Shown: piece after piece, positions 37,638 through 55,461 of the stretch
How the letters are laid out: the number at the start of each line of letters is the position of its first letter
Position numbering within the stretch: position 1 is the stretch's first letter
Virus record (IMG/VR): IMGVR_UViG_2974610597_000001
From: Escherichia virus ESCO5
Taxonomy: Duplodnaviria > Heunggongvirae > Uroviricota > Caudoviricetes
Direction: 5' to 3' (one strand)
Length of the DNA stretch: 64,000 bases
Notes under the pieces: model-generated
What the model saw: only the letters and a program-made list of their open reading frames with translations
Databases searched by the model: none
What the model was told of the DNA's origin: nothing
Program-made: the position numbers and the translations under genes

Positions 37638-40600
37638 TCAATGACAGGATGCCCAGGAATTACCCACGTCATATCCGGCAGTAAGCTGAACGTTAAGATT
37701 GTAAAATTCTCCAGCCTTAGTAACAGCTAAAGCAGCAAGTTCACCTGCCCGACTATAAGCTGTAAACCATCCACCTTTGGGAGATTCATGAATGTTAGCC
37801 CAAATTTGCCCTGTCTCTTTTTCCTTATTATGCTTCCATTCTTCAACTTTAGCAAGGCATTCTTTATCAATTTTCTTTTGTTCTTCAGGATCGTCTACTT
37901 TCTTCCAACCTAATGATTCAGGTGAAAACCATTTGAATTCTACAAGGTTACGAGAAACTTCAAGCTGGGCTTCATCGTGGTATGCAATCATTTGTTGCAC
38001 GAAGTCTTTATTCTTCCAGTCATCTTTAAAGAAGTCAACACTTAGTCCTTCTTCTTCGATCATATCGTCATAAATAACCATTGCACGTTTAGCACAGATA
38101 ACCCCACCACTTTGGAACAGAGAGTTAAGAATCGCGTGAGCAGAACGAGTAGGAACCTTACGACCGTCAATACCCAAAACATACTGTTTACCAGTCTTAA
38201 CCCAGAAATCGTTTAAACGTTCTTTAAGACGCGCCAGTGGGAATGCAGCTTCCCAGAAAGCATCGAACACCAGTTGCCCTGTAAACTTATCGCTACCAAT
38301 TGTTTTAGCAACCTTGTCGGCTTGTGCACCATAGGTAATACCATACTTAACAGATTTAGCAGGACTACGTTCAAATTTACGTCCAATAGTTTCAGTGATA
38401 CGTTTTGCCATCATGGTATGAACATCGTTAGGCTTCTCTAACAAGAGAGCGTTACAGTATTCATGAGGCTCCGGTTCGTAGCGCCAACAGTTTCCTGTGA
38501 TGGTAATGCAGTCTTTCTGACGCATGACCCACGTACCAAGTTCTGTTTGTGGACACCAAACATCCTCTACACCCCACTCTTCAATAGTCAAACTTTGAAC
38601 AGGAATGTGAGAGCGGTTAGCCAATGTTACCACTTTTACTTTCTGCTCTTTTGTATTGAAAGCTACAGAGATATTGCCTCCATGCACCAGGTACGAGGCA
38701 GTTAAAGCTGCTTCAAAAAGTTCACCTGGGTTCTGCGCCCAACGCCAAACAGGTTTTTGTTTATGTTCATGCCAGTAACCATCTGCAATCAAGAAACCTT
38801 CCAAGAAAGCTACACGCTCGGCATGAGACATATTAACTACACGCTCTACCCACGGAACATCCCATTTACCTTGTTGAACAGAAGTTAAACTATTTACCTG
38901 ATCTTGTTCCATGTTAAATGGAGCATTACAAATAATATTATCTCCTGTGCAAAGCTCGGCAGTTGTTCTGACTTTAGGCACATAAGTATTCCCTTTACTA
39001 CGGGTATTAACATACCAACGGTGATCTGCTGTTGCACGGTAAGTGTGTGATTTCCCTTTAATCTCAAACGTCTTACTATTTTTATAGAAGACCTTACCTT
39101 TTACTTTAGTCCATTCTTTCAGACCTGTTTCAGCATTGTACCCTAAAATCTCATCCCCTTCCTTCAGGTCGTGATATCCTACCCAACCTTTACGAGTCAA
39201 AGCTTGAGCATCCATCGGCACACAGTAATGCGACTCAATCTTTGCTTCCAAAGAGTCGAAGTCATAACCGATCTGGAAATATTTAGGAACTTCTACACCA
39301 AACAAGTTACGCATCTCCCATCCAAACAAAGATGTGACACGAGGGATATTGGCTACAGACCTATGCTTCATACGAGAGGTTGCAGCATCACATGTAGCGG
39401 CTGGGGTAGGAATACGCCCATCTGCCCTTACTGCGGCTAAGAAACCTTTATCGTATTCTTGATCTTCTTCATCTTCTTCCCAATCAGCACCGCCACCTAA
39501 AATAGAGTTCCTACGATGCTTATACGTTAAGTATTCTACAATCTGAGTAGCATAAGGAAATTTCTCACCCAAAGCTTGCAGGTTAGGACAGATTTCTTTT
39601 TCCTGACCTTTGGTAAAACATGGGTTAGTCAATACTTTAAGACCGCGACCTTTACCTTTTGCTATACGCTCTTGAATCTTCCTTTCCAAGGTTTCCGGTG
39701 CGCACTCCAGATGATCACAACGGTCCTGACAAAAATTAGAAGATAAAGTTTGCTCAACGTAAGCTCGAATACCTTTCTGAAGTTCTTCCTCACTCTTTTT
39801 AATCTTGGTGCCAGATTTAAGAGTCAAATCTTTATCTTTATATTCCGATGGTACCCAACCTAATCCTACAAGCCAGTTTTTAATATGGGTTGTATCGTTC
39901 AATGTCGCAGGGATGTTAGGATCACACAGAGGCTCATCTGCTGCAACTGGCAGTTTCCACTCTTTCCCCAACATAACTAACCACCAATCGCCATCCCTCT
40001 CTTCCAAATGACCATCATGTTTTTTAGCAAAATTGATCATATGGTTAGTTGGTTCGAGGTTCTTTTTAATTTGCAATTTAGGCGGAATAAAAGCTTTAAG
40101 ATAACCTTTTGTTGCTGGTTTAGGTGGCAAAATAGGCTCAACGAGTAAACGAAGACGCTCCATTTCTGCATCCAAAAAAGCAAGGTTCTCTTCTGCTTGC
40201 TTCATATTAAAAGCAAACCCACGGTGTTCCTGGCGCGTGATAATGTCTGCTACACGTTGTTCAAGTTCAAATGGACCTTCCCATTTATCATAATCACCCC
40301 ATTCTTCCATAAGGTAGTTATATACGCTCGTATTGGCTTTGTTGTCATAGATACAGTAATAAAGCATATCCGCAGCAAAAGTCTTAAATCGATCTTCTTC
40401 TGGAATCTCTTTACGGAAATCTATTTTTACATCACCACCTGCTTTTCGAGAAAGTGCTGCCAAGCTATGTCCTGATTTGCCCTCAATCTTTCGATCTGGG
40501 TTTAACACTTTACTCAAAATCAAGGAGTCAATAAGTTTTACCTTATTTTTGCCCCACGTATTATATTTAACACTGTAATCTAATCCATAAAACAGTTTTG

Positions 40601-40970
40601 TAGCCAACCAGTCGTAGTTGATACCGTTGTGAGCCACAGCCATTTCAACCAGATATTCAGGCTTGTCTTTAAAATAACCTTCATGATTAATAAAGTCTGG
40701 GAAATCTTTTAGTTGAAAATGCGTGTAATCTTGCGCCACATACTCTTTAAGAACATATGTATATTTACCATCTGACTCTTCATAAGGACGCCCATCAAAG
40801 ATGTATTTAGGGCCATCGTGGAAAGCTACTATTTCTCCTGTTTCATGGTTCTCTAAGACAATACAGTGCATTTGAAATGTGTCTTTGAGACGATAAGGAC
40901 TAGCTAAATAATCAATAGTGTCATTATTCAACAATCCGTTTGCTTCAATATCCCATGTAAACTTACTCAC
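37638..40970 (-). CDS. family A DNA polymerase with 3'-5' exonuclease domain, interrupted by a putative intein
   Basis: Exo motif DIEANGL; motif A DFDSLEAKI (res 571-579), motif B RSPAKSVKYGITYG (869-882), motif C YHDE (997-1000); about 250 extra residues between motifs A and B. GTG start overlaps the upstream TAG. Confidence 0.9.
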   Translation of the reverse strand: MSKFTWDIEANGLLNNDTIDYLASPYRLKDTFQMHCIVLENHETGEIVAFHDGPKYIFDGRPYEESDGKYTYVLKEYVAQDYTHFQLKDFPDFINHEGYFKDKPEYLVEMAVAHNGINYDWLATKLFYGLDYSVKYNTWGKNKVKLIDSLILSKVLNPDRKIEGKSGHSLAALSRKAGGDVKIDFRKEIPEEDRFKTFAADMLYYCIYDNKANTSVYNYLMEEWGDYDKWEGPFELEQRVADIITRQEHRGFAFNMKQAEENLAFLDAEMERLRLLVEPILPPKPATKGYLKAFIPPKLQIKKNLEPTNHMINFAKKHDGHLEERDGDWWLVMLGKEWKLPVAADEPLCDPNIPATLNDTTHIKNWLVGLGWVPSEYKDKDLTLKSGTKIKKSEEELQKGIRAYVEQTLSSNFCQDRCDHLECAPETLERKIQERIAKGKGRGLKVLTNPCFTKGQEKEICPNLQALGEKFPYATQIVEYLTYKHRRNSILGGGADWEEDEEDQEYDKGFLAAVRADGRIPTPAATCDAATSRMKHRSVANIPRVTSLFGWEMRNLFGVEVPKYFQIGYDFDSLEAKIESHYCVPMDAQALTRKGWVGYHDLKEGDEILGYNAETGLKEWTKVKGKVFYKNSKTFEIKGKSHTYRATADHRWYVNTRSKGNTYVPKVRTTAELCTGDNIICNAPFNMEQDQVNSLTSVQQGKWDVPWVERVVNMSHAERVAFLEGFLIADGYWHEHKQKPVWRWAQNPGELFEAALTASYLVHGGNISVAFNTKEQKVKVVTLANRSHIPVQSLTIEEWGVEDVWCPQTELGTWVMRQKDCITITGNCWRYEPEPHEYCNALLLEKPNDVHTMMAKRITETIGRKFERSPAKSVKYGITYGAQADKVAKTIGSDKFTGQLVFDAFWEAAFPLARLKERLNDFWVKTGKQYVLGIDGRKVPTRSAHAILNSLFQSGGVICAKRAMVIYDDMIEEEGLSVDFFKDDWKNKDFVQQMIAYHDEAQLEVSRNLVEFKWFSPESLGWKKVDDPEEQKKIDKECLAKVEEWKHNKEKETGQIWANIHESPKGGWFTAYSRAGELAALAVTKAGEFYNLNVQLTAGYDVGNSWASCH
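38490..39224 (-). other. putative intein (Hint domain with LAGLIDADG-like motif) inside the DNA polymerase
   Basis: Residues 583-827: N-terminal Cys, block-B-like TADH, LEGFLIADGYW, C-terminal ITITGN followed by Cys +1. Confidence 0.55.
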
Positions 40971-41764
40971 TATTCCTCCTTTCTAATGTTCTCCAGAACC
41001 CACTGAAGTTCTTTTAAACTTAAACTTCTTACTCCCGCAGTTTTACTAGCTTCAGCTTTAAGTAACGGGTAAGCCTCAATGATACGCGTTTTAAGATCAG
41101 AAGTCAAGGCTTTTAAAAAATAGGTAGATGCTTCAGATAAAGAATCTTCTTCTGATAACACTTTACCTGCACTTGCTCCCGCTCTCCTAACGGCTATATC
41201 GTAGTCTTTACTGTTACCTAATACGAATAGTCGATTCTCTCCTAAAACAACGGGAGAACGCTTCTCGTTGCGTTTAATCCATATCTGGAATACACAAGGA
41301 ACATCCCAAGGTTCTCCATGAAGAATAAAAGATCCTTTTGGACATTCTTCTTCGTAAAGAAGATGCATGTGGGGATTTAGTTTGTGTGCAAAAAAGATTT
41401 TTTGAAATGTGCGAGGCAAGATAAAACAAATACCACCTTCGTTATCCAACATTTCAGCACAATGGTTAAAGAACTTAATGGCAAGACTAGCATTTTTTCC
41501 AAACGGAGGATTACCGACAAAAGCAGTTACACTACCAACAGACTCAACAGATTGAGCTAAAAAATCTGCCTCAATACAATCTTCAAACTTAGGGTCAATA
41601 TCAAAAGAAGTTATGTTTTTAAAACAAGAAGAGAAAGCTCCTTCTCCCGCAGATGGTTCTACGTAGTTAGCTTCCTCTCCAAAAATTTCTTTGATCTTAT
41701 CACATAAGAACCCCGCATAAGCGGGGTTAGTGTAATATTGATCAAGTGTGTTCAACTTGCTCAA
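40970..41764 (-). CDS. N6-adenine DNA methyltransferase
   Basis: AdoMet motif VEPSAGEGAF followed by catalytic motif GNPPFG. Confidence 0.65.
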   Translation of the reverse strand: MSKLNTLDQYYTNPAYAGFLCDKIKEIFGEEANYVEPSAGEGAFSSCFKNITSFDIDPKFEDCIEADFLAQSVESVGSVTAFVGNPPFGKNASLAIKFFNHCAEMLDNEGGICFILPRTFQKIFFAHKLNPHMHLLYEEECPKGSFILHGEPWDVPCVFQIWIKRNEKRSPVVLGENRLFVLGNSKDYDIAVRRAGASAGKVLSEEDSLSEASTYFLKALTSDLKTRIIEAYPLLKAEASKTAGVRSLSLKELQWVLENIRKEE

Positions 41765-42299: not shown

Positions 42300-44076
42300 A
42301 ATAATTGCTATCCGTAGGCAAATTAGCAGGATTGTTGAAATACTGCTCTTTGTCATGCAGAGTTGCAGTTCTAATGTCATAGTAAAACTGCCCTGCCGGA
42401 CCAGTTTCCGAGAACTCACGGTTTTTTAGGATAAAGCAATGAGTCGTATTGCGTTCTACAGGGTCTTCAGCGGCTTTATCTCGTTCCAAAGCCAAGGTAA
42501 TACCAGCACCTTTAGCCAAGAAACTACTACCCATTGCATCGTCCTCTGTTAAGTGTTCATTGCCACCATTAGCCGATTTCTTAACGTGTGAGATGACGAT
42601 AATAGTTATAGCATACTCTTTCATGATGCGCTTCAACCATGTTGCTAACTCTTCCTGGGCTTGAACATCCATACCAGAAAGCAAATCAGAATAAGGGTCG
42701 ATAACAAGAATTGTTACTCCAAAATAGATGATCATCTCCAAAACTTTTTCTTTGATAGACTCCACATCTGCTCCACGATCATCACACACATAAAAACGTG
42801 GTGATCCATCTTCTCTTTCGTAAAAATCCAGGATTTTTTCTTTATTCTCTTCCAAGATTTGAAATTTCTCTTCCGGTGTTTTCCTGTGTAGAGGAATATG
42901 CAGGAACGAGGACAACAGGTTACGAGAATATTTCTTATAAGTTGCTTCCAAGGACAGAATACCTAGGGTATGTTCTGGGTGCGCAACAATAATATGTTTG
43001 GTGATCTCGTTCACCATCAAAGTTTTACCGATACTGGTCTTTGCCAGGATGACTGTAATCTCTTCCTCTACTAAACCACCACCCAGCATATTTGCAGCAA
43101 CACGCATAAAAGGAGGCAAGGTAATCATCTTGGATTCCAAGCATTCTAATGCAGCTTCATACAAGACATTAGAAGCATAAACACCTGCTGGGGTGTATAG
43201 ACGAGCACTCCAAAAAGCTTTTACGAAATCTTTTGCACGACCTTCTTCCAGATACTGATTGGCATCCTTAAGATCCATCTGCATACGATAGACTTTGTTA
43301 CGAGGCAGCACCTTAACAATATTTTCAAATGCCTCATTACCTGCTTTGTCGTTATCCATGCAAACAATAATCTTCTTAAATTTTTCAAAGAAAGGATATT
43401 GTGCCTGAACTTGTTTATACATACTGGTTTCACCAGTTGTGCCACTTACTACGGCTGGAAGCTCATATTTACTGTCCAAGTTTTCAGATAGCATTTGATA
43501 AGCTGCCAGAGCATCGTGTTCACCACCTGTAATTACAACAGTATGAGAACGGTCTGCAAAACGAATTTGTCCAAAAAGATCTACATCTTTACCTACTTGA
43601 CCAATAGGTTTACTGAAATCTTTAGGATGAATACGACGCTTAAAACCAACCAATTCTTTACCGATGGTAGTCGGATATAAACAACTTTCTACTACCATCT
43701 GATCTCCTTCCTGACGGTATTCATAACGAACACCATAGAAAGATGAAACTTTTTCTTTAATGCCTCGATAACCACGTGGGTTGGTTGATGTTTCTTGAAC
43801 AATTTTACGATGAATCTGTTTATTAAATTCCGAACCCACAATCTCCTCCTCTTCTTCTAAAACTTCACCATTTTCTCGTAACCATTCTACGCTAGGAATA
43901 GTGTATTCACACGCAAAGCACTTAGCACCTTTATGCTCTCCATTAGAATCTAATCCGTAAACCATCAGGTTATTACGAGAGCGATCCTTGCCATTTTTCA
44001 TGCAGCGCGGACAACCTGTATGTCCTTCCTTGCTAAGATCAACATCAAATCCATATTTAGTTATAATGTGCGACAC
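42298..44076 (-). CDS. bifunctional DNA primase-helicase (T7 gp4-like)
   Basis: N-terminal zinc ribbon (CPRC...CFAC), TOPRIM-like segment (VVITGGEHD, CMDNDKAGNEA), Walker A (AKTSIGKT); GTG start after AGGAGA. Confidence 0.85.
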   Translation of the reverse strand: MSHIITKYGFDVDLSKEGHTGCPRCMKNGKDRSRNNLMVYGLDSNGEHKGAKCFACEYTIPSVEWLRENGEVLEEEEEIVGSEFNKQIHRKIVQETSTNPRGYRGIKEKVSSFYGVRYEYRQEGDQMVVESCLYPTTIGKELVGFKRRIHPKDFSKPIGQVGKDVDLFGQIRFADRSHTVVITGGEHDALAAYQMLSENLDSKYELPAVVSGTTGETSMYKQVQAQYPFFEKFKKIIVCMDNDKAGNEAFENIVKVLPRNKVYRMQMDLKDANQYLEEGRAKDFVKAFWSARLYTPAGVYASNVLYEAALECLESKMITLPPFMRVAANMLGGGLVEEEITVILAKTSIGKTLMVNEITKHIIVAHPEHTLGILSLEATYKKYSRNLLSSFLHIPLHRKTPEEKFQILEENKEKILDFYEREDGSPRFYVCDDRGADVESIKEKVLEMIIYFGVTILVIDPYSDLLSGMDVQAQEELATWLKRIMKEYAITIIVISHVKKSANGGNEHLTEDDAMGSSFLAKGAGITLALERDKAAEDPVERNTTHCFILKNREFSETGPAGQFYYDIRTATLHDKEQYFNNPANLPTDSNY

Positions 44077-44088
44077 TTTGTTCTCCTG

Positions 44089-44367
44089 TTAAAATGGTTC
44101 GTTAGTCTCCATCATATATTCTGCTTCTAGTTCTTCCATGTGCTTTCTAAATTGGAAAGCAATTTCTGCTACAGTTACATTTAAATCTTTTTCAAAAACT
44201 TCTGTAGATCCTTCATAAAAACGAATACCGTCAATTAAAAGCCCTCCGTGGTAATCCCAATCGCTTTCACGAGAAAGTGGATTAGGTTCTTCATAATAGT
44301 AATCCACCTCCACAACCAAGGCTTTCCCGTTACGAGTGGTGTATTCAAAATCAAAAGTGTTAATCAT
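44089..44367 (-). CDS. hypothetical protein
   Basis: 92-aa ORF between primase-helicase and the glycosyltransferases. Confidence 0.4.
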   Translation of the reverse strand: MINTFDFEYTTRNGKALVVEVDYYYEEPNPLSRESDWDYHGGLLIDGIRFYEGSTEVFEKDLNVTVAEIAFQFRKHMEELEAEYMMETNEPF

Positions 44368-45311
44368 TATAGCTCCTCAAATAAAAGTCTACGACGCTCA
44401 TTCAACACATCAATGTGATAATGAGTCCTGACATACTTAGCTAATGCTAATCCTTTCTCCATGCAAACATCGGGAGCACTTAATAAGTATTCCGTAATAT
44501 CTTTCCACTCGGAAGGTGTTTCAGCAAAGAATAACAAATCTTTAAACTCTTGTGTATGATAATTCTCACGAGGAGAGCAGATTAAAGGTAAACCCTTAGC
44601 ACCTGCCTCAAGAATTTTAAGATTGCTTTTTGCATTATTAAACACGTTATCGATCAATGGTGCAAGACTGATTTGATGACCATCGTAAGATTCCATGTAG
44701 TAGGCATATGGTCTTACACCTTCATAAACACAAGTTGGTGCTACATTTTCCCTGATTAAAGACCATTCACGACTACTTAAAACTTCAGAATCCCTACGAA
44801 AACCACATATTGTAAGATCTTTACCAAAATCGGGCAAGATAGCCAAATCTTGTTTATGTGTTTCACTTCCAGCCCAGACTAATGGAGTTTTGGAGTAGCG
44901 ATCACGGGTCAACACAAATTGACCTTCATCGTAAGGAAGTCCATTAGGGATTATGTGCACATTATCATTGTATTGTGAAAGTTCAACTTGCAAGGCAGGT
45001 GTCGTAGTTGTAACAAGATCACTGTGCTCTAAAAACCATTTTAAATGTTCACGAATACCTGATTCAAAAATACCTTCTAACATGTGTCCTTTTGGAATAA
45101 CTAAAGAGTCATCCAAATCCATAACCATTTTAAAGCCCAGGTTTTTAAGGGCTAAAAAGCCCTCTTTACCTTTTGTTGGCACTCCGTTAAAAACGAAAAC
45201 GTTGTGTTTAGGTTGTGAAGAGAACTGCCTTGAGTAAGGCAGCACTACCCTATGGAAATCGCAGACACTATAATTGATTCCGTTACGATTGTCAAGAATT
45301 ATTTGTCCCAT
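44367..45311 (-). CDS. glycosyltransferase, GT-B-like (paralog 1)
   Basis: 314 aa; C-terminal NLKILEAGAKGLPLICS resembles the GT-B sugar-donor region; clearly paralogous to 45319..46305. Confidence 0.5.
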   Translation of the reverse strand: MGQIILDNRNGINYSVCDFHRVVLPYSRQFSSQPKHNVFVFNGVPTKGKEGFLALKNLGFKMVMDLDDSLVIPKGHMLEGIFESGIREHLKWFLEHSDLVTTTTPALQVELSQYNDNVHIIPNGLPYDEGQFVLTRDRYSKTPLVWAGSETHKQDLAILPDFGKDLTICGFRRDSEVLSSREWSLIRENVAPTCVYEGVRPYAYYMESYDGHQISLAPLIDNVFNNAKSNLKILEAGAKGLPLICSPRENYHTQEFKDLLFFAETPSEWKDITEYLLSAPDVCMEKGLALAKYVRTHYHIDVLNERRRLLFEEL

Positions 45312-45318
45312 ACTTCAC

Positions 45319-46305
45319 CTACAAACTTTCAATAACCTGGCGTCGCAATTCGTTTGCATCTGCCAGATTATAATGTGTTCGAACATGTTCCGCTAAGAAC
45401 AAGCCGCGATCTTCCCGATAGTTCGGATTGCGAAGAAGCTTAACAATTTCGTAATGCCATTCAGCTTTATTCTCTGCGTAAGCAACAGCGCGAGCATCTA
45501 CAGGGTTAAAATAAGGTAATACCTTAGAACAAACAATCGGAATACCTTTTGCCCCAGCTTCAAGGATTTTGAGATTACTTTTACAATTATTAAAATCATT
45601 GTCTACCAAAGGAGCTATAGCAATAGCATGACTTTCGTAAACACTCATGTAATTATCTAAATCTTTTACAGCAGCTTTATATTTGGCGTTTGGTAAATTT
45701 CTACGGATCTTAATCCACTCTTGCCCTGTGATACTCTGCGATGCTTCATATCCTGCAATAGTAAGAAGTTCATCATCGAAAGTATTAGAGACTAGTCGTA
45801 AATCGGGTTCGTGACTAGCACCGCCAGCCCATACAACAGGGGTACCGGATGAACGATCATTTGACAAAGTGAATTGTCCGCTATCAAAAGGAAGTGCATT
45901 TCGGATCACAACAACATTCCTATTTAAGTGACGGATCTTATATGCCAAATATTCCGTAGTCACAATGACCACATCGGCAAGCTTAACCATAGCTACAATA
46001 GCATGAGTGTTTGACTCATATAAACTTGCTAAATAATGTTCTGGATTAAGTTGGTAGAAATCATCTAAATCTACAACAATCTTAACACCTTGACGTTTCA
46101 GTGACAGAACATATTCTGCCCCTTTAGAATGAATACGGTTAAACACGACAACATCTTTCTTAGGCTGAAAATTATTGTTGTTAAATGGTATAACAATACG
46201 ATGATAATCACAACCACTGTGAGGTTTTGCATCAATTTTCAGTTTAGTCCATTTTTTATTTGACATGTGCCAGTGCCTCCTCATAAGAAATTCGGATTTT
46301 CCCAT
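45319..46305 (-). CDS. glycosyltransferase, GT-B-like (paralog 2)
   Basis: Shares CDYHRIV..., VVWAGGASHEPDL and NLKILEAGAKGIPIVCS with paralog 1; true start probably the internal Met near 46266. Confidence 0.5.
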   Translation of the reverse strand: MGKSEFLMRRHWHMSNKKWTKLKIDAKPHSGCDYHRIVIPFNNNNFQPKKDVVVFNRIHSKGAEYVLSLKRQGVKIVVDLDDFYQLNPEHYLASLYESNTHAIVAMVKLADVVIVTTEYLAYKIRHLNRNVVVIRNALPFDSGQFTLSNDRSSGTPVVWAGGASHEPDLRLVSNTFDDELLTIAGYEASQSITGQEWIKIRRNLPNAKYKAAVKDLDNYMSVYESHAIAIAPLVDNDFNNCKSNLKILEAGAKGIPIVCSKVLPYFNPVDARAVAYAENKAEWHYEIVKLLRNPNYREDRGLFLAEHVRTHYNLADANELRRQVIESL

Positions 46306-46939
46306 TTTTAATATCTTCTAAAGACGCTTTATATTCTTCCCAGTTAATGCCAATAGCAACTTCTTTCTCTTCTTTTGTCAGATTAGCAAAAGGCATAGGA
46401 TTGTTTCCAAAAACATCGTCTGGGTGGATATAAGCCATGATACGAAGTGGACAAGGTATTGCCTGAATGCCCTGATTCAAACCAGCAGCTTTCAAACGGT
46501 GTACCCATTCAGCATCTTCAAAACCATAGCCGTGAGTGTAAGGGCGGAAATAACCCATCTTCTCAACAACGGCACGAGAATACATTGCAAATTGACACAT
46601 TGCAAGTTCCCAGAGAATAACTTCTCCTTTACTCCCAACAACTTTATCTTTGAAATACTCCGGCATACCAAAGAAATCCCATCCTCCAGAGACAGCTTGA
46701 TCTACAAAATATGTTTCCCATCCCTCCATGATTGGGTAGCAATCGTCGTCAAAAATAAACCAATAATCATAACCTTCTTCATAAAACTGGTGCATAAGTT
46801 CATTCCTGGCGTAAGCTACACCTTTACGATCTGGATCGTTGAATACTCGAAAATCTGCATGTGGATCTGTTACAAGGTAGTCTTTAAGTGGACGGACACC
46901 TACAGTGATAACACCCACTCCGATTTTAATATTTTCCAT
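46256..46939 (-). CDS. glycosyltransferase, GT-A (family 2)-like
   Basis: 227 aa with DxD-type motif (IFDDDC) and GYGFEDAEW. Confidence 0.5.
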   Translation of the reverse strand: MENIKIGVGVITVGVRPLKDYLVTDPHADFRVFNDPDRKGVAYARNELMHQFYEEGYDYWFIFDDDCYPIMEGWETYFVDQAVSGGWDFFGMPEYFKDKVVGSKGEVILWELAMCQFAMYSRAVVEKMGYFRPYTHGYGFEDAEWVHRLKAAGLNQGIQAIPCPLRIMAYIHPDDVFGNNPMPFANLTKEEKEVAIGINWEEYKASLEDIKNGKIRISYEEALAHVK

Positions 46940-46947
46940 TTTCTCTC

Positions 46948-47511
46948 CTAAATAGTTTTACTGTGATCGTGACAGTGTAATAAATGATGTATAGACCGTT
47001 GAGGATTTGTTTGACCTAATCTGTAAATGTGAAACAGATACATTCCCCGCATCAATCCTAACCTCTTTCCTTTTTCATGTAAAGTGCGAGAGAAAATTAA
47101 GTCGAATTGGATAGATTTTTCTTCGAAAGGAATTTCATTCCACAATGATTTTCTAAAAAGCAAAAAGAAACCTGCCAGAGGTGTTCCGAAAGGAACTTCT
47201 TCAACACTCACTTTATGATATTCTCTTGCAATCTTAGCATATTCTATATGGTTTAGAATATCTGGATCATCGTTAATTTGGTTAGAGAAAAGCTGATAAC
47301 CACTACCTAACCTGTTACAAGTTGCACCTATTACATCAAAAGGCGGGTTTGACATAACAAGCTCTTCAAGCATAGATGGTTGATCAGGCAGGAGGAACAT
47401 TGTATCGGTATCTCTTAAGCACACCCAACTATCATCTGGAAGAACGGCAATAGCTTCATTGATAGCCTTGCCGATATTTCCTGTCAGATAGGGAGTAATA
47501 TAATAAATCAT
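46948..47511 (-). CDS. putative nucleotide-sugar transferase (GT-A-like)
   Basis: 187 aa with CLRDTDTMF; weak gestalt similarity. Confidence 0.35.
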   Translation of the reverse strand: MIYYITPYLTGNIGKAINEAIAVLPDDSWVCLRDTDTMFLLPDQPSMLEELVMSNPPFDVIGATCNRLGSGYQLFSNQINDDPDILNHIEYAKIAREYHKVSVEEVPFGTPLAGFFLLFRKSLWNEIPFEEKSIQFDLIFSRTLHEKGKRLGLMRGMYLFHIYRLGQTNPQRSIHHLLHCHDHSKTI

Positions 47512-47527
47512 TCTCCCCTCCGTTATA

Positions 47528-47719
47528 TTAACTGTCAGCTACAATCCCACGTTTAATCATTTCTTGTTGGATTTGGATGACACGATCTCGTGCTTCCATA
47601 TATTCTTTAAAAGATTCTTGGAGATGGTCACGAGCTACATCCCGTAGTTTAATCAGCTTGTCGTTTGTCACTTCTTGAAGAGAGATCTCGCCAGTTTCAT
47701 TGGTCCCAAGCGTTTTCAT
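47528..47719 (-). CDS. hypothetical small protein
   Basis: 63-aa ORF. Confidence 0.35.
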   Translation of the reverse strand: MKTLGTNETGEISLQEVTNDKLIKLRDVARDHLQESFKEYMEARDRVIQIQQEMIKRGIVADS

Positions 47720-47927
47720 TTACAACCTCCTTAATAGCTACTGCACAGTTCTTACAAATACATTGACCTTTGTTCTTAGAAATTTCAATGTAAGGTTCAT
47801 TTTCGTTTTCTCCGCGTCGTGAATCGTATATTACAGTATTGAAGCAGACAACGCAAATGTTTTTAATAACAACATATTTTTGCACTTTTTGTTTAGTGCG
47901 AAAATTTACTTCAATGACTTCTCCCAT
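47697..47927 (-). CDS. small zinc-finger-like protein
   Basis: Start moved to the ATG at 47927 (TGATG overlap with upstream stop, GGGGAG RBS); Cys pairs CVVC and CICKNC. Confidence 0.4.
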   Translation of the reverse strand: MGEVIEVNFRTKQKVQKYVVIKNICVVCFNTVIYDSRRGENENEPYIEISKNKGQCICKNCAVAIKEVVNENAWDQ

Positions 47928-48211
47928 CAGTGAATCTCCCCTAAAATGTTGTTTTGAGACATTACTGCGGAGCATTCTACAGCATCATGAGTCCTTGCAA
48001 AACGCTCCCACAGCACAGCATCTACTTTAAGAACCACACAAGGATAAATACTGTCGTTGATCATATCAATGCTATATTTATCTACATCCTTTTCATCTTC
48101 CATAAACAAAGTAGCGTATGCTTCCAAATGTTTACGGGTGTAGTATACGTCCTCTTCGGTAAGACCGACAACCAGGTAACTTGCTACAACAACAGTATTA
48201 TCTTCTTGCAT
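47927..48211 (-). CDS. hypothetical protein
   Basis: Start moved to the ATG at 48211 preceded by GGGGAG. Confidence 0.4.
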   Translation of the reverse strand: MQEDNTVVVASYLVVGLTEEDVYYTRKHLEAYATLFMEDEKDVDKYSIDMINDSIYPCVVLKVDAVLWERFARTHDAVECSAVMSQNNILGEIH

Positions 48212-48212: not shown

Positions 48213-48734
48213 TTAACTCCCCTTTGGTAGATAGAAACCATGCACTTTATCTCGATAAACAAGACGCATATCACGCTCCCAGTGTGTCCTTATATTCCGT
48301 TTCTTGAAGTATAGAGCACCTTTAGTAACATCTAAAACAGACCGCAATTCAGGAAAATGTTTCTCTAAATAAAGTAAACGCTCCGCTATTGCTTTTGCTT
48401 CCTGCCATTTATCTTTCTCTGTCACGTTAAAAGTTTTCGCATATGAGAATTGCCCTTTCTGGAACAAGACTCCCTTGACTGTGTTAGGGAAGTAGGCATC
48501 ATTTCTTCTGTTGATTACCACATTCCCAACGGCATTCATTCCTTTTTTACCCAGACCGCGACCTTCTGCGTAAATTGCACAAGCTAATAGAATTTTATCA
48601 TTATATTGCTTTGTACATTTGTGAACTACTTTAGCGGTTTTTACGTTTGCAGCTTCGGCTTTCGCCACAACAGGTGTAAATGTAAAAGCAGTTAAGGATA
48701 GTAACGCAACTGTTACAAAGTTTTTTATCAGCAA
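48213..48734 (-). CDS. secreted endolysin, SleB/CwlJ-type cell-wall hydrolase
   Basis: N-terminal signal peptide (ending AKAEA); hydrolase motif AIYAEGRGLGKKGMNAVGNVVINRRND...GQFS; TTG start after AGGAGG. Confidence 0.6.
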   Translation of the reverse strand: MLIKNFVTVALLSLTAFTFTPVVAKAEAANVKTAKVVHKCTKQYNDKILLACAIYAEGRGLGKKGMNAVGNVVINRRNDAYFPNTVKGVLFQKGQFSYAKTFNVTEKDKWQEAKAIAERLLYLEKHFPELRSVLDVTKGALYFKKRNIRTHWERDMRLVYRDKVHGFYLPKGS

Positions 48735-48830: not shown

Positions 48831-49433
48831 TTATGGACATTCATACCATTCTTTTTTACCACCGAAGGCCATTACCACATCGCAAATATCCAGACCAGCT
48901 TTACCTACACCATATGCTTTCAGCTTCCATTCTCCATCTTCACGAACCAGGGAAGCCACGTGGCAGATTGTGTTGCCAGCTACTTCAGGAGCCAGGAAGT
49001 CAAAATCCAGAATTTCCACATTACGCTCGGAGTCGAAGATTTTAAGCATACCTTCAGAAGCATGACCAAAACGTTTCAGACCTGTATCATCATCAATAGT
49101 CAGAACAAAGGCAATCTCTTGTGCATCAGGAGAGATTTTAGCCAGAGTAATATCAATCTGCTCCATGCTGCCAGTTCCATCACGAACATCGTCACCAGCA
49201 AAGGTAGAACGTTCAGGATCAAACTTATTAGCATAGCAAACCAGATGACGTGCAGACAGCATTTCAGGATTGCCAGCGGCATTGTGACGACAAACCAGTG
49301 CACTTACATCCAGATCCAGTTTAGAATCAGATTTCCAAGAGAACTCCAGGCGTAGTTCTTTCAGAGCCGGAGCAACTTTCTTCAGGGAAATTTTTTCGCT
49401 AGAGCCTTTTTTCAGGGAAATTTTATCAGTCAT
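48831..49433 (-). CDS. terD: TerD-family protein
   Basis: Duplicated ISLKK N-terminus, LDLDVSAL and GDDVRDGTG acidic loops, C-terminal EDGEWKLKAYG, matching E. coli TerD features (VSLSK, FDLDASAF, NGEWKFRAVG). Confidence 0.8.
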   Translation of the reverse strand: MTDKISLKKGSSEKISLKKVAPALKELRLEFSWKSDSKLDLDVSALVCRHNAAGNPEMLSARHLVCYANKFDPERSTFAGDDVRDGTGSMEQIDITLAKISPDAQEIAFVLTIDDDTGLKRFGHASEGMLKIFDSERNVEILDFDFLAPEVAGNTICHVASLVREDGEWKLKAYGVGKAGLDICDVVMAFGGKKEWYECP

Positions 49434-49448
49434 CTTTTGTCTCCTCTA

Positions 49449-49718
49449 TTATTTAAGTGTAATACCAGTTACAGTCAATTCTACTTCCAAAAGCTTAGAT
49501 GTGTTTTGGATTGATACTAATTGTGCATGATGGTTTAGTTCTACAGCAGAATAATCATTTTCCCCATCATCTACTTTTAAATAAACAATGATTTCACTAA
49601 GGTCTAAACCATTTTCGTCAAATGCATTTTCATAGACGAAAGTATCTCCTACATCCAAATCTTTAATGGTAAGGCATCGTTTATTTACTTTTTGCTCATC
49701 AATTTCGAAGTTTAACAC
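49449..49718 (-). CDS. hypothetical small protein (paralog A)
   Basis: 89 aa; shares DLDVGDTF..Y..A.DE.GLD and a C-terminal V.L.VT.ITLK with 50740..51018. Confidence 0.45.
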   Translation of the reverse strand: MLNFEIDEQKVNKRCLTIKDLDVGDTFVYENAFDENGLDLSEIIVYLKVDDGENDYSAVELNHHAQLVSIQNTSKLLEVELTVTGITLK

Positions 49719-49947
49719 TTCTTCCTCCTAATATTATCTCCGGTTTATATATACGAAGAATTATAGCATTTTCATTTTCTTTGTCAACCCATTCTTCATA
49801 ATCAGGCCATACATGAATCTCTACTCTACTTACAATATCTTCCATTCGCACAGTCCCAATGAAATACTCTTTGAGACTGCACATAATGAAAGCTTCTCTC
49901 TCGCGCCAATAATTTTCTATGACTTGAGAGGCAAGCTCGTCGATCAT
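49699..49947 (-). CDS. hypothetical protein
   Basis: 82-aa ORF. Confidence 0.4.
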   Translation of the reverse strand: MIDELASQVIENYWREREAFIMCSLKEYFIGTVRMEDIVSRVEIHVWPDYEEWVDKENENAIILRIYKPEIILGGRSVKLRN

Positions 49948-50738
49948 TTTTTAGCACCTACTTTAACAACCCACTCTCCGAACTCTTCAGATAAGAGTTT
50001 GTCATAAAGCTCTGAATCTGTCAAGTCTAAATCTTTAATGCCAATAAAACCAACATTATCATAAGCATTTGCCAGTTCTTTCAGGAAGCCAAACTTCTCA
50101 TTACCAACGCCAACCATGAACCAATAAATAGGTTTATTCTTATTCTCTTCAATAAGACGACGAACAGCACTAGGATCACCATTCTCACCATCCGTCTGGA
50201 AGAATACAACACCAGGGGTAACGTCAGCACCTGGTTCAGACACAGCTACAACCTTTTCACGCTCTACAGATACTGTTTCAGTTTTACCAAGCAGACGATT
50301 AAAGAAGCCTTTCTTTGGAGCCTCTTCTTGTACCACTTGTTTAGTGGTAATATATTTGGTAACAGTGCCAAAATACTCATCGTAGATATCTGCCATTACA
50401 GGGGCGTAATTTGTTCCACCTCCGATACGAACATTACGCATACATTTACCAACATAGTCATCGTAAACGTCTGCTGTTGCTGGAGTAAGCTCTTGGGAAC
50501 TCGTATTGAAGGCCCACATATCAATTTGTTGATTATCGTCGAACAGCATACCAAAAGGAAGCAGTTTACCTACAAAATCACTCACTACCCCACTAGAATA
50601 TAGACCATGCATACTACCAGAAATATCTAGAGCACATGCTACACGAAGAACAATCTTACCTTCATTCAGGTTCTTATTCTTTTTCAGAGAGAAAGCAAGG
50701 TTTTCTTGACGTTTTTTCAGGCTGATTTTATCGGACAT
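49944..50738 (-). CDS. von Willebrand factor A domain protein (TerY / TerF-vWA-like)
   Basis: MSDKISLKK N-terminus, then MIDAS motif DISGSM, GGGTNY and FQTDGENGD. Confidence 0.7.
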   Translation of the reverse strand: MSDKISLKKRQENLAFSLKKNKNLNEGKIVLRVACALDISGSMHGLYSSGVVSDFVGKLLPFGMLFDDNQQIDMWAFNTSSQELTPATADVYDDYVGKCMRNVRIGGGTNYAPVMADIYDEYFGTVTKYITTKQVVQEEAPKKGFFNRLLGKTETVSVEREKVVAVSEPGADVTPGVVFFQTDGENGDPSAVRRLIEENKNKPIYWFMVGVGNEKFGFLKELANAYDNVGFIGIKDLDLTDSELYDKLLSEEFGEWVVKVGAKK

Positions 50739-50739
50739 A

Positions 50740-51018
50740 TTATTTCTCCTTCTTAAGTGTAATGTTGGTAACTTCTAAATCTACTTCCACCATATTTGTA
50801 TCTGGCGGGATGCAATGAGTATAGCCTCGTTGTGCTAGTGATCCATTAATACAAATCGCACTGTTTGTGGAATTTTTAATGAACACCAAGTTACGGTAGG
50901 TATCCAACCCTGCGTCTTCATAGGCATCATAATACATGAATGTGTCCCCTACGTCAAGATCTTCGAAAGCAATAGGTAAATCCTGACCTTTTTCTTCTTG
51001 AATATTGAATCTAAACAC
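50740..51018 (-). CDS. hypothetical small protein (paralog B)
   Basis: Probable GTG start at 51018 after GAGGAGG; see paralog A. Confidence 0.4.
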   Translation of the reverse strand: MFRFNIQEEKGQDLPIAFEDLDVGDTFMYYDAYEDAGLDTYRNLVFIKNSTNSAICINGSLAQRGYTHCIPPDTNMVEVDLEVTNITLKKEK

Positions 51019-51574
51019 GCATACCTCCTCTACCAATTTTGAAGCCCAAATCGTAAGCTTCCTTAGTAATCTTTTGTAACTCACTTATAGGAAGTGTTAC
51101 AAGAGGATCATCTTCTTCAATTTCCATCTTGTCATCTTCTGTTTCAATGAGAGTATTATGCACTTTGTGATAAGGGTTGTCAACACGTTTAAACTTATTC
51201 TTTTCTGTGCTGAAAAAACAATCTGGATCTTCTTCACCATCACCCCAACCTTGATTAGGATCTCCGTCAGATTGTTCTGTAGGGATTTCACCTGTAAAGT
51301 ACTCTTCCAGCACCATAGCAATACCGTCCCTTGGATTTGAGGAATGCATTAAATCACAAACCTTACCCCAATCCATAGCCCATTCGAACCGTTCACGAAC
51401 GCCATTTTCATCCTCTTTTCCAGAGAAAACACAACCATAACTATCATAGTTGCCATACATCTCTTCAATAACAACACCGTCTTTCAAAAGAAAGAGGTAG
51501 CAAGGTGATCCGTCGAAAGAAGTAGAAAGGGCAGCTTTGCCCGATTCTTTGCACAAAAAACTAAAACAACCCAT
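51011..51574 (-). CDS. hypothetical acidic protein
   Basis: 187-aa ORF, Asp/Glu-rich. Confidence 0.45.
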   Translation of the reverse strand: MGCFSFLCKESGKAALSTSFDGSPCYLFLLKDGVVIEEMYGNYDSYGCVFSGKEDENGVRERFEWAMDWGKVCDLMHSSNPRDGIAMVLEEYFTGEIPTEQSDGDPNQGWGDGEEDPDCFFSTEKNKFKRVDNPYHKVHNTLIETEDDKMEIEEDDPLVTLPISELQKITKEAYDLGFKIGRGGMRV

Positions 51575-51777
51575 TACAAACCCTCCTTCAGATTATCAAG
51601 AGCTACAGTGGTTTCACAAAATTCTCCATAAGCTTTATGATGTTCCAGAAAAGCTTCGGGTCCACCCCAGTCATTATCTTGTGTATTCCAACCATCAATA
51701 AAAGCATCTTCAATGATTGTGATCAGTTCTTGTCGGGTTAACTGGATAATATTAGGATCGTTATCGTAGTTAAACAT
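51574..51777 (-). CDS. hypothetical protein
   Basis: 67-aa ORF; ATG overlaps the upstream stop. Confidence 0.4.
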   Translation of the reverse strand: MFNYDNDPNIIQLTRQELITIIEDAFIDGWNTQDNDWGGPEAFLEHHKAYGEFCETTVALDNLKEGL

Positions 51778-51938
51778 CTTCTTCCTCCTCTAAAATATGA
51801 AACCCGTAATTACAATAGTCCTGAAAGGTTTCGTGCGCAAGATCTTCTATATCCTCTTGAGACATATCATCTTCAATTTCGATATCCACAACCTCATTGC
51901 ATCCACACCAAGCAGTTTCAATATTCACTCGTAATATT
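51774..51938 (-). CDS. hypothetical small acidic protein (about 55 aa, not in the ORF track)
   Basis: ATG after AGGAGG; translation MKILRVNIETAWCGCNEVVDIEIEDD...EEEEDV; coupled start/stop overlaps on both sides. Confidence 0.3.
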
Positions 51939-51942
51939 TTCA

Positions 51943-52140
51943 TTACTCCTCCTCCTCATTGAAGTCAATATCTGCAAGGAGTTCGAATTTACGGAAGTTA
52001 CGACAACCTTCATAAATATAACAATCACGACAAACTGCTAGAACACTTGGGGGATATATGCCTCCCATCGGTGCGAATCGTTTTTCGTCATCATAACGGA
52101 CACCAATGTCTTCATCAATTATATAGATACGGATTCTCAT
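51943..52140 (-). CDS. hypothetical small protein
   Basis: 65 aa with CRDC...C and a C-terminal EEEE. Confidence 0.35.
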   Translation of the reverse strand: MRIRIYIIDEDIGVRYDDEKRFAPMGGIYPPSVLAVCRDCYIYEGCRNFRKFELLADIDFNEEEE

Positions 52141-53249
52141 TTACCAAGCCCTCGTTTCACAGCAGCTACCATCCCGTCTTCCAGAGATTGAACTTCATTA
52201 ATATAATCAACACGAGCAGCACGGGCTTCCGTATTGATGCGGTTAGTTTCTTCCAACATCTTAACCAAGTTTTCCTGATCGTGACGCAGAGTTTCAATAT
52301 CCAACACTTGACGGTTAGCCAGTGCTGCTGCTTCGATCTGATTCTGTGTGGCAAGATCGCTACCTAGTTTAATTGCCAGGTTAAATTCATCAAGAACGTT
52401 ATTCTGCGTCTCTGCTGCTTTCATTTGACGTAAGCTCTCGATATACATTGAGAAGTTAGCAGAGTAAGCAGGAATAACATTATTTACTATGTTACGCGCA
52501 GATCGCATTAAGCTTGCAGAAACTTTTTGCATACCTTGTACACGCGGTCCCATTTGGACACACAGTAGGCGCAACGCCTTTAAATCTGCAATACGAATCT
52601 CCAGGAGATCCAAAGTATCTCGGATCACTTGTCGCTGTTCTACGGCATCTTCTGGAAGAGCAGCCAAAGCTTGTTCTTCTTTTTCATAGGTTGCTGTTAG
52701 AAGCTGCATATCTCGGTTCAAACTTGCAGCATATTGTCCAATAGCTTGGTGTAGCTTTTCAAGATATACCAAGGAATCTTCTTCTTTGCGAATATCCATT
52801 TGAAGGTTCTTTACCAACTCTTCAATACGGTTATTAACATTATCAAACTCCCCAAACAGGTCTTCTTTCATACCCATAACTTTTTTAATGAGTTTAGTAA
52901 TACCCTTGCTTTGTTTAATAGAGTTTGGATCAAGTTGTTTTGCCTGTTTAATCAAGGCTGTGAGTCGTTCACTCATCTGATCGCCTTGATTACTACGTTG
53001 ATGTTTTAACACCTCGGCATTCAAGGAACGCAAGGTTGTTCCTGCCTCTGCCCCAATCTCTTCGATCTCTTGTCGGGTCATAGAAGGTAAAACTGGAACT
53101 TCTTGCGGTGCTGCTGGTGCATAAACAGGACTGGCATCTAACACACTTGGAGCAAATACAGATTTACTTGCATCTGTTGTTGCAGCGAATACACTCATTT
53201 CAGACTTCTTCTGACCACCAGTAGCTGCTTTTAAAAATGGACTTGTCAT
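52137..53249 (-). CDS. TelA-like helical protein
   Basis: 370 aa, predicted all-alpha coiled coil with a low-complexity N-terminus; size and composition fit the TelA/KlaA family; sits between the TerD/vWA genes and TerC. Confidence 0.45.
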   Translation of the reverse strand: MTSPFLKAATGGQKKSEMSVFAATTDASKSVFAPSVLDASPVYAPAAPQEVPVLPSMTRQEIEEIGAEAGTTLRSLNAEVLKHQRSNQGDQMSERLTALIKQAKQLDPNSIKQSKGITKLIKKVMGMKEDLFGEFDNVNNRIEELVKNLQMDIRKEEDSLVYLEKLHQAIGQYAASLNRDMQLLTATYEKEEQALAALPEDAVEQRQVIRDTLDLLEIRIADLKALRLLCVQMGPRVQGMQKVSASLMRSARNIVNNVIPAYSANFSMYIESLRQMKAAETQNNVLDEFNLAIKLGSDLATQNQIEAAALANRQVLDIETLRHDQENLVKMLEETNRINTEARAARVDYINEVQSLEDGMVAAVKRGLGK

Positions 53250-53836
53250 TCTTCATTCTCCTCTTCTGCATCTCTTATATATGGTGAAACACCGTACTCT
53301 TTAGCTACTTTAACCCAATCATCCCATTTATACAACCATAATTTTCCTTCAGTTCCTTCTTTATCTGATTTCAACCACATGTTAGGTTGCTTGCCTGGGT
53401 ACATGCGATTAGGTTTACGATTATAACCTCTAACACATCTTGTCGCAAACCTATCTACCAGAACAAGAACATATTTATATTCGTGGTTCAACGGCTCTTT
53501 GGAAGTGGCTTTAGGATTAGCTCCTAATTCTGCTGCCAGTTTTTGCCAATGAGCACCGTGTCTACTAAACTTACCCATACAACCATCAATAGCATGAGCA
53601 ATTTCGTGCTTCATTGTATCCACGATCATATCTCTTGTAGAGTTCTTATGCAAGTGCCAATTTACAACAACAATTTTATCTCGGTAGTTGCACCAACCGA
53701 AAGAGTTATTAACTTTGTTTCTAACACAAGCTTTATATCCTGCTTCACGTAACATGTTGTAGTAAACAGGAAAATCTTCTTTTATTTCCTGCATCACTTC
53801 CCACCACAAGAGTTGCAAGTCTCTCTCGGTATGCAT
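53246..53836 (-). CDS. SprT-like zinc metallopeptidase
   Basis: HEIAHAI (HExxH) and a downstream His/Cys-rich segment (GCMGKFSRHGAHW). Confidence 0.45.
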   Translation of the reverse strand: MHTERDLQLLWWEVMQEIKEDFPVYYNMLREAGYKACVRNKVNNSFGWCNYRDKIVVVNWHLHKNSTRDMIVDTMKHEIAHAIDGCMGKFSRHGAHWQKLAAELGANPKATSKEPLNHEYKYVLVLVDRFATRCVRGYNRKPNRMYPGKQPNMWLKSDKEGTEGKLWLYKWDDWVKVAKEYGVSPYIRDAEEENEE

Positions 53837-53839
53837 AAC

Positions 53840-54433: not shown

Positions 54434-54447
54434 TGTTTTTCTCCTTA

Positions 54448-55455: not shown

Positions 55456-55461
55456 CATCTA

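Follow-up and report, generated by a model that had tools for sequence, protein, structure and literature searches.

Glycans on capsid proteins have been reported for phages Che8 and Rita (PMC11256854). A different type of phage glycosylation acts on DNA: DNA-modifying glycosyltransferases (GTs) of the GT-A type share an R...DDD...EDY/F motif, and structural searches with true DNA-modifying GT-B enzymes yielded matches that include BshA, MshA and PglH (Pyle et al., preprint, 10.1101/2023.12.21.572611). Here, we analyzed a cluster of four consecutive glycosyltransferase genes, referred to as D, C, B and A in their order of transcription, in a 64,000-nucleotide (nt) stretch of DNA from Escherichia virus ESCO5 (IMG/VR record IMGVR_UViG_2974610597_000001, hereafter the window). 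Positions 44000-48000 of the window are 100% identical to the ESCO5 genome NC_047776.2 (Phapecoctavirus, Stephanstirmvirinae), and window positions correspond to record positions minus 63034. All four genes are already named 'glycosyltransferase' in RefSeq; this annotation and the rhamnose pathway of the phage were known, and the type of system is phage-encoded glycan assembly. What is new here is D-C-B as a mobile cassette, the lack of any hydroxymethyl-handle enzyme genome-wide, and a genomic context that shifts the likely target away from DNA. We suggest that the four transferases and the rhamnose (rml) genes probably build a small glycan on an acceptor other than DNA, for which a phage virion protein is the leading, if still tentative, candidate.

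The sequence-only reading of the window placed four glycosyltransferase genes side by side at 44367-47511 and divided them into two paralogous GT-B-like and two GT-A-like enzymes. Four minus-strand open reading frames (ORFs) lie exactly at these positions, all with PHROG matches, and the division held: A and B are paralogs (41% identity, E 2e-76), the structural models of A and D show the expected folds, and C is homologous to GT-A domains. Both A and B matched PHROG 7162 ('glycosyltransferase') with E values of about 1e-145 (B: 6.8e-149). The AlphaFold (AF2) model of A (predicted local distance difference test, pLDDT, 93.4) has a GT-B fold with two Rossmann-like domains, and its best Foldseek matches in the PDB are GT4-type enzymes, GlgM, MshA, BshA, PglA, GtfC/Gtf3 and SdgB (E 1e-9 to 4e-7, template modeling score, TM, 0.5-0.6), with a tetrahydrobiopterin glucosyltransferase also among the best; neither BGT nor AGT of phage T4 appeared within the best 50. 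B can be expected to adopt the GT-B fold as well, judging from its identity to A. Pfam scores fell slightly under the gathering thresholds both for A (24.7 versus 25 bits for PF13524, Glyco_trans_1_2) and for B (22.6 versus 27 bits for PF13692, Glyco_trans_1_4), and neither protein had a match in NCBIfam. When PDB sequences were searched with A, C and D or with A-family and D-family profiles, weak GT4 matches at the C-terminus were the only useful result. In the family alignment of A, inspected by eye, K228, K232 and E235 are conserved within 'KSNLKILEAGAKG.P'; as judged in the same way, the second glutamate of an E-x7-E motif is present, and the residue eight positions earlier is an unconserved alanine.

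The two GT-B genes have a different distribution. Two copies are present in Phapecoctavirus and Justusliebigvirus and one in Klebsiella relatives and temperate phages; paralog A was found only in large phages of the Stephanstirmvirinae type, of which the Klebsiella members have a single GT-B. We therefore propose that A is a later duplicate of B, and that B is the ancestral GT-B of the cassette, in which a single GT-B of the B type follows D and C. It is plausible, as suggested in the sequence-only reading, that the A/B pair would carry out two successive sugar additions.

D matched PHROG 14179 (E 8.5e-113) and had no match in Pfam or NCBIfam. Its AF2 model (pLDDT 89.6) is a minimal GT-A fold, a single Rossmann-like domain with a D34-T-D36 motif in which D34 and D36 are invariant. 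The best Foldseek matches in the PDB are the GT-A enzymes LH3, ppGalNAc-T2, COLGALT1 and RmlT (E 5e-4 to 3e-3), LARGE1 is a further match, all with modest scores, and the top match among the viral models of BFVD is a Cellulophaga phage transferase (TM 0.87). The D family comprises 977 cluster representatives, in which the domain is standalone or fused behind TOD1/MUCI70-like, GT2 or Methyltransf_24 domains. C matched PHROG 2456 ('glycosyltransferase'; E 1.2e-78) and, below threshold, TAGT in Pfam (PF20691; 19.2 bits versus a cut-off of 27.5, E 0.0013, 36 residues), a weak match also recorded for an ortholog of C; Glyco_transf_7C and GT2 were further weak matches. Residues R45, D64-D65-D66 and E141-D142 of C are followed by an alanine at the position where the motif of DNA-modifying GT-A enzymes has tyrosine or phenylalanine. 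Almost the whole of C aligned with the GT-A domain of gp104 from mycobacteriophage ShiLan (E 2e-13), and the DDD motif of C together with its homology to GT-A domains classify it, at the sequence level, as a GT-A type enzyme. C and D are unrelated to each other by BLASTP. No membrane segments were found in A-D (maximum 19-residue Kyte-Doolittle mean ≤1.65). A is acidic (isoelectric point, pI, 5.7; net charge -8.5), as are C and D (net charges of -13 and -4.7), and B is mildly basic (pI 8.5), a property seen also in the N-domain of B-type enzymes; these values give no more than a weak hint.

The genes D, C and B also recur together in unrelated phages. In an HK97-like prophage of Serratia sp. 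M24T3, homologs of D (41% identity), C (36%) and a GT-B (51% to B, 39% to A) are found in the same order, placed between lysis genes and genes for an HNH protein, terminase, capsid and portal. Homologs of B with 44-54% identity were detected in Pseudomonas, IMG/VR and Logan sequences. The D-C-B order is kept in phages as well as prophages of Serratia, in three IMG/VR contigs (L056-L058) and in the Logan contigs L035 and L036, where a small ORF and a primase follow. In L057, D and C are separated by an RmlB-like gene. The C-B pair lies upstream of metallopeptidase, TerS, TerL and portal genes in Pseudomonas prophages, and between a Q/antirepressor/HicAB region and holin-lysozyme genes in a lambdoid contig (L038); in contig L037, B and C are located between TerL and portal. 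In a Chitinophaga prophage, the primase and TerL genes enclose genes for a GT-B, a hexapeptide acyltransferase and a C-like protein. Cellulophaga phage phi18:1 has, inside the head module and beside a methyltransferase, a fusion gene in which another, N-terminal domain precedes the D domain; the N-terminal domain of D fusions of the same length was TOD1/MUCI70 GT-like when scanned. We therefore propose, on the basis of these sequence comparisons, that D-C-B is the ancestral, horizontally mobile unit.

A census of 12 divergent loci, covering the 141 ORFs located up to 5 kb from the cassette, found 85 families, and the 25 most frequent of these included GT2 (5), portal (4), capsid (4), Methyltransf_23 (3), Methyltransf_24 (3) and hexapeptide acyltransferase (2), with terminase and nucleotide diphosphate (NDP)-sugar dehydratase/epimerase as further recurrent families. 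Families D, C and B thus belong to glycan-building and tailoring islands that usually adjoin packaging, head or lysis genes. The island in contig L064 (IMG/VR UViG_3300048591_000195), for example, contains a DegT aminotransferase, a methyltransferase, an acetyltransferase, a GT2, D, a C5 DNA methylase, portal and capsid. In this contig (positions 6001-7421), a distant homolog of D (34%) is followed immediately by the C5-cytosine DNA methylase, the sole context found that hints at a link with DNA; no oxygenase was detected near the methylase. The small ORFs flanking the cassette in ESCO5 and in the Serratia prophage are not homologous, and therefore provide no shared candidate for an acceptor protein.

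A sugar donor is suggested by the genome itself. ESCO5 encodes a complete RmlABCD pathway for dTDP-L-rhamnose (gp083-gp086, listed as RmlD, RmlC, RmlA and RmlB; record positions 30493-33771, outside the window), and the NCBIfam equivalog scores all exceed their cut-offs (TIGR01207, 459.5 versus 360.65; TIGR01181, 428 versus 365.1; TIGR01221, 225.3 versus 155.75; TIGR01214, 238.9 versus 224.05). At 60% identity or more, RmlC was found in 132 phage records, from the same organism groups as the transferase cluster. In E. coli, rffH and rffG cover the Rml A and B steps, and the C and D steps are not always supplied by the host. Phage ESCO37 has lost rmlA and rmlB and kept rmlC and rmlD, which fits a host supply of the first two steps. 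We infer that dTDP-L-rhamnose serves as donor for one or more of the four transferases. The rml genes are located in a region of nucleotide metabolism, and Olsen et al., who noted the pathway, proposed a rhamnosylation of hydroxymethylated nucleotides (PMC7552041).

We favor, tentatively, a model in which the glycan is placed on the virion. RmlA, B, C and D would turn glucose-1-phosphate into dTDP-L-rhamnose, making the phage independent of the O-antigen type of its host, and the host would supply the remaining donors (UDP-sugars). D, C, B and A, as soluble cytoplasmic glycosyltransferases acting in sequence, would then assemble a short rhamnose-containing oligosaccharide on a non-DNA acceptor, with A, the presumed duplicate of B, adding one more sugar or a branch. 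The use of rhamnose by these enzymes, their order of action and the identity of the acceptor are all deduced in this model. The acceptor would probably be a flexible part of the virion, such as the many tail fibres or spikes, rather than the ordered lattice of capsid or tail, and the system would then have parallels in the virion glycosylation of Che8-type mycobacteriophages and of chloroviruses. A virion protein is suggested by the position of the D, C and B families in or beside head modules, together with tailoring enzymes, and by the relationship of C to transferases of a mycobacteriophage glycosylation locus: apart from members of its own family, C is most closely related to the transferases at this locus in cluster F mycobacteriophages (about 350 records), and Che8 gp108-110 occupy the same genome position as the ShiLan locus. 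The structural matches of A and D furthermore include the protein O-glycosyltransferases GtfC/Gtf3, SdgB, ppGalNAc-T2, LH3 and COLGALT1, and giant viruses provide an analogy, as they also make rhamnose for capsid glycans.

Several observations nevertheless weigh against a virion acceptor. The similarity to the Che8 proteins themselves is marginal for gp108 (C, E 0.004), and C showed none to gp109 or gp110. Ser/Thr-rich tails are said to be the sites that accept glycans in Che8, and a scan of the ESCO5 head and tail proteins found no such tails. In the phi92 cryo-electron microscopy study (2026), the major capsid protein, cement protein, portal, connector, sheath, tube and baseplate core were modelled at the atomic level and neither glycans nor extra density is mentioned (PMC13450770), so any virion glycan would sit on flexible or unresolved parts. 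In Stephanstirmvirinae, moreover, the cluster lies behind a perfect sigma-70-like site, between Ter and replication genes, and this sequence context suggests early or middle expression, not late. A position next to terminase genes is common for morons and for DNA-modification genes, and the genomic context does not, therefore, decide the acceptor. Finally, our literature search found no published donor or acceptor for any member of the three transferase families.

The sequence-only reading had considered glycosylation of hypermodified DNA bases, as a protection against restriction, and kept another phage or host macromolecule as a fallback; the fallback turned out to be the better-supported branch, as a handle enzyme is lacking, relatives of ESCO5 are sensitive to restriction, and the temperate copies of the cassette have no base-modifying partner. 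The observation that the window contains no hydroxymethylase was correct and extends to the whole 149-kb genome (annotations plus Pfam and NCBIfam scans). The genome-wide search for base-modifying genes found no ThyA-type hydroxymethylase, TET/JBP oxygenase or C5-methylase, and a Pfam scan of the 69 poorly annotated ESCO5 proteins of at least 110 amino acids (aa) yielded 19 families, without TET/JBP, 2-oxoglutarate (2OG) oxygenase, Thymidylat_synt, C5-methylase or TGT. The sole thymidylate-synthase homolog of ESCO5, gp097 ('putative thymidylate synthase'), is, according to NCBIfam, a divergent protein of the ThyX type and not of a ThyA or hydroxymethylase type. A role as a hidden hydroxymethylase was considered and rejected, since more than 1000 phage records hold homologs of gp097, and N4, ICP1 and rV5-type phages, which are among them, gave no relative in the searches with A, C and D. 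We consider it unlikely that the enzymes put rhamnose or other sugars on phage DNA, be it on pyrimidines hydroxymethylated by an unrecognised enzyme or at sparse sites, as a means of evading nucleases, and complete or dense hypermodification of the T4 style is very unlikely. A mobile cassette would find a portable substrate in DNA, and the Stephanstirmvirinae cluster adjoins a primase-helicase, an N6-adenine methyltransferase-like gene and DNA polymerase, with the rml genes in the nucleotide-metabolism region for which rhamnosylation was proposed by Olsen et al. Likewise, the R, DDD and ED residues of C resemble the motif of DNA-modifying GT-A enzymes, and its TAGT match, although under the Pfam threshold, points the same way, as does the C5 DNA methylase that neighbours a distant homolog of D in L064. 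The GT4-like matches of A are compatible with DNA, since those of true DNA-modifying GT-B enzymes also include BshA and MshA. However, T4 BGT and AGT are outside the best 50 structural matches of A, the proteins A, C and D are acidic, and phAPEC8, phi92 and Phapecoctavirus genomes are not in the list of NCBI phages from the GT-A profile search of the preprint (10.1101/2023.12.21.572611). In addition, the phi92-like phages PaulScherrer, EmilieFrey and JohannJBalmer of the BASEL collection carry orthologs of A (76-77% identity) and D (~66%), with C orthologs of ~75% in other phi92-like phages, and Maffei et al. described the phi92-like group as 'exceptionally susceptible' to restriction-modification 'despite a putative dTDP glycosylation machinery' (PMC8594841). 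HincII cut all but three phages of a collection including five Phapecoctavirus isolates (PMC10269720); none of the three resistant phages is among the named Phapecoctavirus or Justusliebigvirus isolates, and one, ESCO58, is a Tequatrovirus. Furthermore, no TET/5mYOX, C5-methyltransferase or ThyS neighbours were present among the 25 most frequent of the 85 families at the 12 other loci. A variant in which D-C-B would attach sparse sugars to DNA itself, for example at particular sites on canonical bases or through a handle from an unrecognised enzyme, is highly improbable; restriction of types I-III would still work in this case and the marks could blunt other defences, and it would mean that DNA glycosylation occurs without a hydroxymethyl-pyrimidine pathway in both lytic and temperate phages.

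A host envelope glycan ranks second, after a virion protein, as a possible but doubtful acceptor. Working on the cytoplasmic side of the membrane, the transferases would add rhamnose and other sugars to an intermediate linked to undecaprenyl diphosphate (Und-PP), such as Und-PP-GlcNAc, the primer of enterobacterial common antigen (ECA) and O-units, or to lipid A-core. The phage could in this way mask its own receptors (ECA and the first outer-core glucose), leading to superinfection exclusion or to less adsorption of progeny to debris or, alternatively, it could tie up undecaprenyl phosphate (Und-P) and weaken the envelope before lysis. GT4-like and GT2-like enzymes with rmlABCD make up the composition of an O-antigen/ECA assembly cluster, the best structural matches of A include PglA, an enzyme that uses an Und-PP-linked acceptor, and the mildly basic N-domain of B-type enzymes recalls peripheral-membrane GT-B enzymes; yet A-D have no membrane segments and the cassette has no flippase, polymerase or Gtr-type partner. 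The receptors of Phapecoctavirus are thought to be ECA and the core glucose (PMC12753057; PMC8594841), and the sigma-70-like promoter suggests early expression, but a complete modification of abundant surface glycans in a lytic cycle would probably be futile (Humolli et al., PMC11990801). In ESCO5, the genes upstream encode proteins that act on the envelope, namely TerC, TelA, TerD and a SleB-like hydrolase whose N-terminus resembles a signal peptide. The cassette adjoins lysis genes in ESCO5, in the Serratia prophage and in lambdoid contig L038, and the copies of temperate phages occupy the classic moron position of lysogenic-conversion genes. Nevertheless, the islands of small phages lie among head genes and not beside immunity or integration genes, and the hosts of the phages that carry the cassette differ greatly in their envelopes: besides Enterobacteria and Pseudomonas, GT-B and C-like genes extend to Chitinophaga, and the D domain to phages of Cellulophaga. 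The remaining explanation, which we regard as improbable, is that the acceptor is a small molecule or a non-structural macromolecule (a nucleoside-like metabolite of the Ter-associated phosphoribosyltransferase (PRTase) and phosphatase, a host protein or RNA) and serves host takeover or counter-defence. The transferase cluster directly follows TerC/TelA/vWA-TerF/TerD in every Stephanstirmvirinae-type contig examined that reaches upstream, the Ter block of ESCO5 also holds a ComF-like PRTase, and MshA, BshA, GlgM and the tetrahydrobiopterin glucosyltransferase are among the best matches of A. However, a series of three or four transferases, accompanied by enzymes for methyl and acetyl tailoring, points to an oligosaccharide carried by a macromolecule, the metabolite is a prediction, and the cassette occurs without Ter genes in Serratia, Pseudomonas, lambdoid and IMG/VR phages. 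A general functional coupling with the Ter cluster was also rejected on the grounds that the cassette travels without it.

Table 1. Positions of the glycosyltransferase genes and of neighbouring features in the ESCO5 window
Feature	Positions	Strand	Length	Description
D (gp211)	46948-47511	minus	187 aa	minimal GT-A with DxD, by its model; first gene of the cassette
C (gp212)	46256-46939	minus	227 aa	GT-A-type glycosyltransferase, by homology
B (gp213)	45319-46266	minus	315 aa	predicted GT-B glycosyltransferase (RefSeq start)
A (gp214)	44367-45311	minus	314 aa	GT-B paralog of B
gp215	44089-44367	minus	92 aa	acidic; PHROG 4240; start overlaps the stop of A
Sigma-70 promoter-like site	49760-49787	minus		TTGACA, 16-nt spacer, TG-TATAAT; consensus match
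TerD	48831-49433	minus		
vWA-TerF	49944-50738	minus		
TelA	about 52137-53249	minus		
TerC	about 55462-56436	minus		
ComF-like PRTase	about 57239-58066	minus		

The four genes are tightly packed, with junctions ranging from an 11-nt overlap to an 8-nt gap (Table 1); the longest ORF for B starts at 46305 instead of the RefSeq start at 46266. In the direction of transcription, a SleB-like 'endolysin' gene and three small ORFs lie upstream of D-C-B-A, and the primase-helicase gene lies downstream, after gp215. The sequence-only reading, which placed the transferases upstream of the small ORFs and the endolysin, is thus corrected in its orientation. The predicted sigma-70 site matches all 12 hexamer positions (12/12) and has an extended TG, and it ranks first among the promoter-like sites over the 10 kb scanned. 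The co-directional block behind it comprises TerD, the SleB-like hydrolase, the three small ORFs, D-C-B-A, gp215 and the primase, and the scan found no minus-strand terminator-like sites between this site and the primase gene. An ORF of 85-92 aa between the GT-B gene and the primase is also present in the related large-phage contigs L007, L032, L035, L036 and L041. gp215 showed no similarity to the 71-aa ORF at the matching place in the Serratia prophage, and its membership of the glycosyltransferase system is uncertain.

Other genes of the region deserve comment. A Ter-type module (TerC, TelA, vWA-TerF and TerD, with PRTase, phosphatase and hydrolase genes; about 48831-58066) is located directly upstream of the hydrolase/transferase block. 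The 'endolysin' (48213-48734, minus strand) is a SleB-type cell-wall hydrolase (Pfam Hydrolase_2) with an N-terminal signal-peptide-like segment ending in ...AKAEA. ESCO5 also has a separate lysozyme, gp080, and spanins beside the terminase genes, and the SleB-type protein may therefore not be the main lysis enzyme. On the other side of the cluster, gp218 (40970-41764, minus) is of the Eco57I-like N6-adenine methyltransferase type (PHROG 5172; weak Pfam match, E 0.017) and shares one base (stop/start) with the gene for a family A DNA polymerase (37638-40970, minus, 1110 aa). Compared with an 860-aa homolog of 75% identity, this polymerase has a clean insertion of 244 residues (38493-39224), the flanks of which join seamlessly (...SHYC | CWRYE...); the insertion starts with cysteine and ends with ...TGN followed by cysteine, an intein pattern, and no intein domain was detected in it by Pfam at E 0.001 or better. 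One of the 69 scanned proteins matches the XkdF-type prohead protease family Peptidase_S78_2. The match probably belongs to gp256 (509-988, plus strand), the gene of which lies between portal and scaffold, and in that case its RefSeq name, 'DNA methyltransferase', would be wrong. Outside the window, ESCO5 encodes several domains related to ADP-ribose and NAD (Sir2, NADAR, Macro and a cyclic-phosphate receiver domain) as well as CapR and nSTAND-type NTPase domains; all of these genes are candidates for counter-defence, with no link to the transferases.

Stephanstirmvirinae of the phi92 and phAPEC8 types are candidates for broad-host-range therapy, and their 'rhamnose machinery' has been noted repeatedly in the literature. 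A virion glycan, if confirmed, would bear on the immune recognition, stability and pharmacokinetics of therapeutic phages and would, to our knowledge, be the first known case of virion glycosylation in phages of Gram-negative bacteria. An envelope glycan would instead represent a mechanism of receptor masking in lytic phages. In either case, D-C-B is a defined three-gene unit for expression and assay, and the locus is a caution that a cluster of transferases in a lytic phage does not automatically mean DNA hypermodification.

The locus can be compared with several known systems. It has in common with the T-even phages (BGT and AGT of T4; the beta-glucosyl-hydroxymethylcytosine (HMC) alpha-glucosyltransferase of T2 and T6) a lytic lifestyle, GT-B and GT-A genes near replication genes and possibly successive additions, and with the TET/ThyS-associated DNA glycosyltransferases (TAGT) a weak local similarity near the DDD motif of C, which PHROG 842 also shows. 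It differs from both in having no enzyme for 5-hydroxymethyl-pyrimidines, restriction-sensitive relatives, a TAGT score under threshold and no BGT or AGT of T4 among the best structural matches of A. O-antigen and ECA clusters resemble it in content (rmlABCD with GT4-like and GT2-like genes) and in the structural matches of the PglA type, and prophage modifiers of glycans (GtrABX; TarP of Staphylococcus aureus) in the moron position that the cassette occupies in temperate phages. However, the ESCO5 cassette has no initiating transferase, flippase, polymerase or Gtr-type membrane protein, and it is common to phages of hosts with unrelated envelope glycans; a Gtr module (GtrA/GtrB/GtrX) was looked for, and there were no hydrophobic segments in A-D and no Gtr-like neighbours.

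Giant viruses, such as the chlorovirus PBCV-1 with A064R, combine a rhamnose-nucleotide pathway with several GT-A domains, and sometimes have methyltransferase fusions, like the GT-GT-methyltransferase fusions of the D family. They make UDP-L-rhamnose, whereas ESCO5 has the bacterial dTDP route, and no sequence or structure match to A064R was found. With respect to the Che8 system, the capsid and tube proteins of ESCO5 have no Ser/Thr-rich tails, the similarity to Che8 proteins is marginal or absent, and cryo-electron microscopy of the phi92 capsid and tail reports no glycan; ESCO5 has, moreover, a Gram-negative host and makes its own dTDP-rhamnose. Nevertheless, the loci of Che8 and other cluster F phages are similar in encoding several soluble phage transferases without membrane partners, in the alignment of C with ShiLan gp104, and in the fact that, in other phages, the D, C and B families are found beside head genes and methyltransferases.

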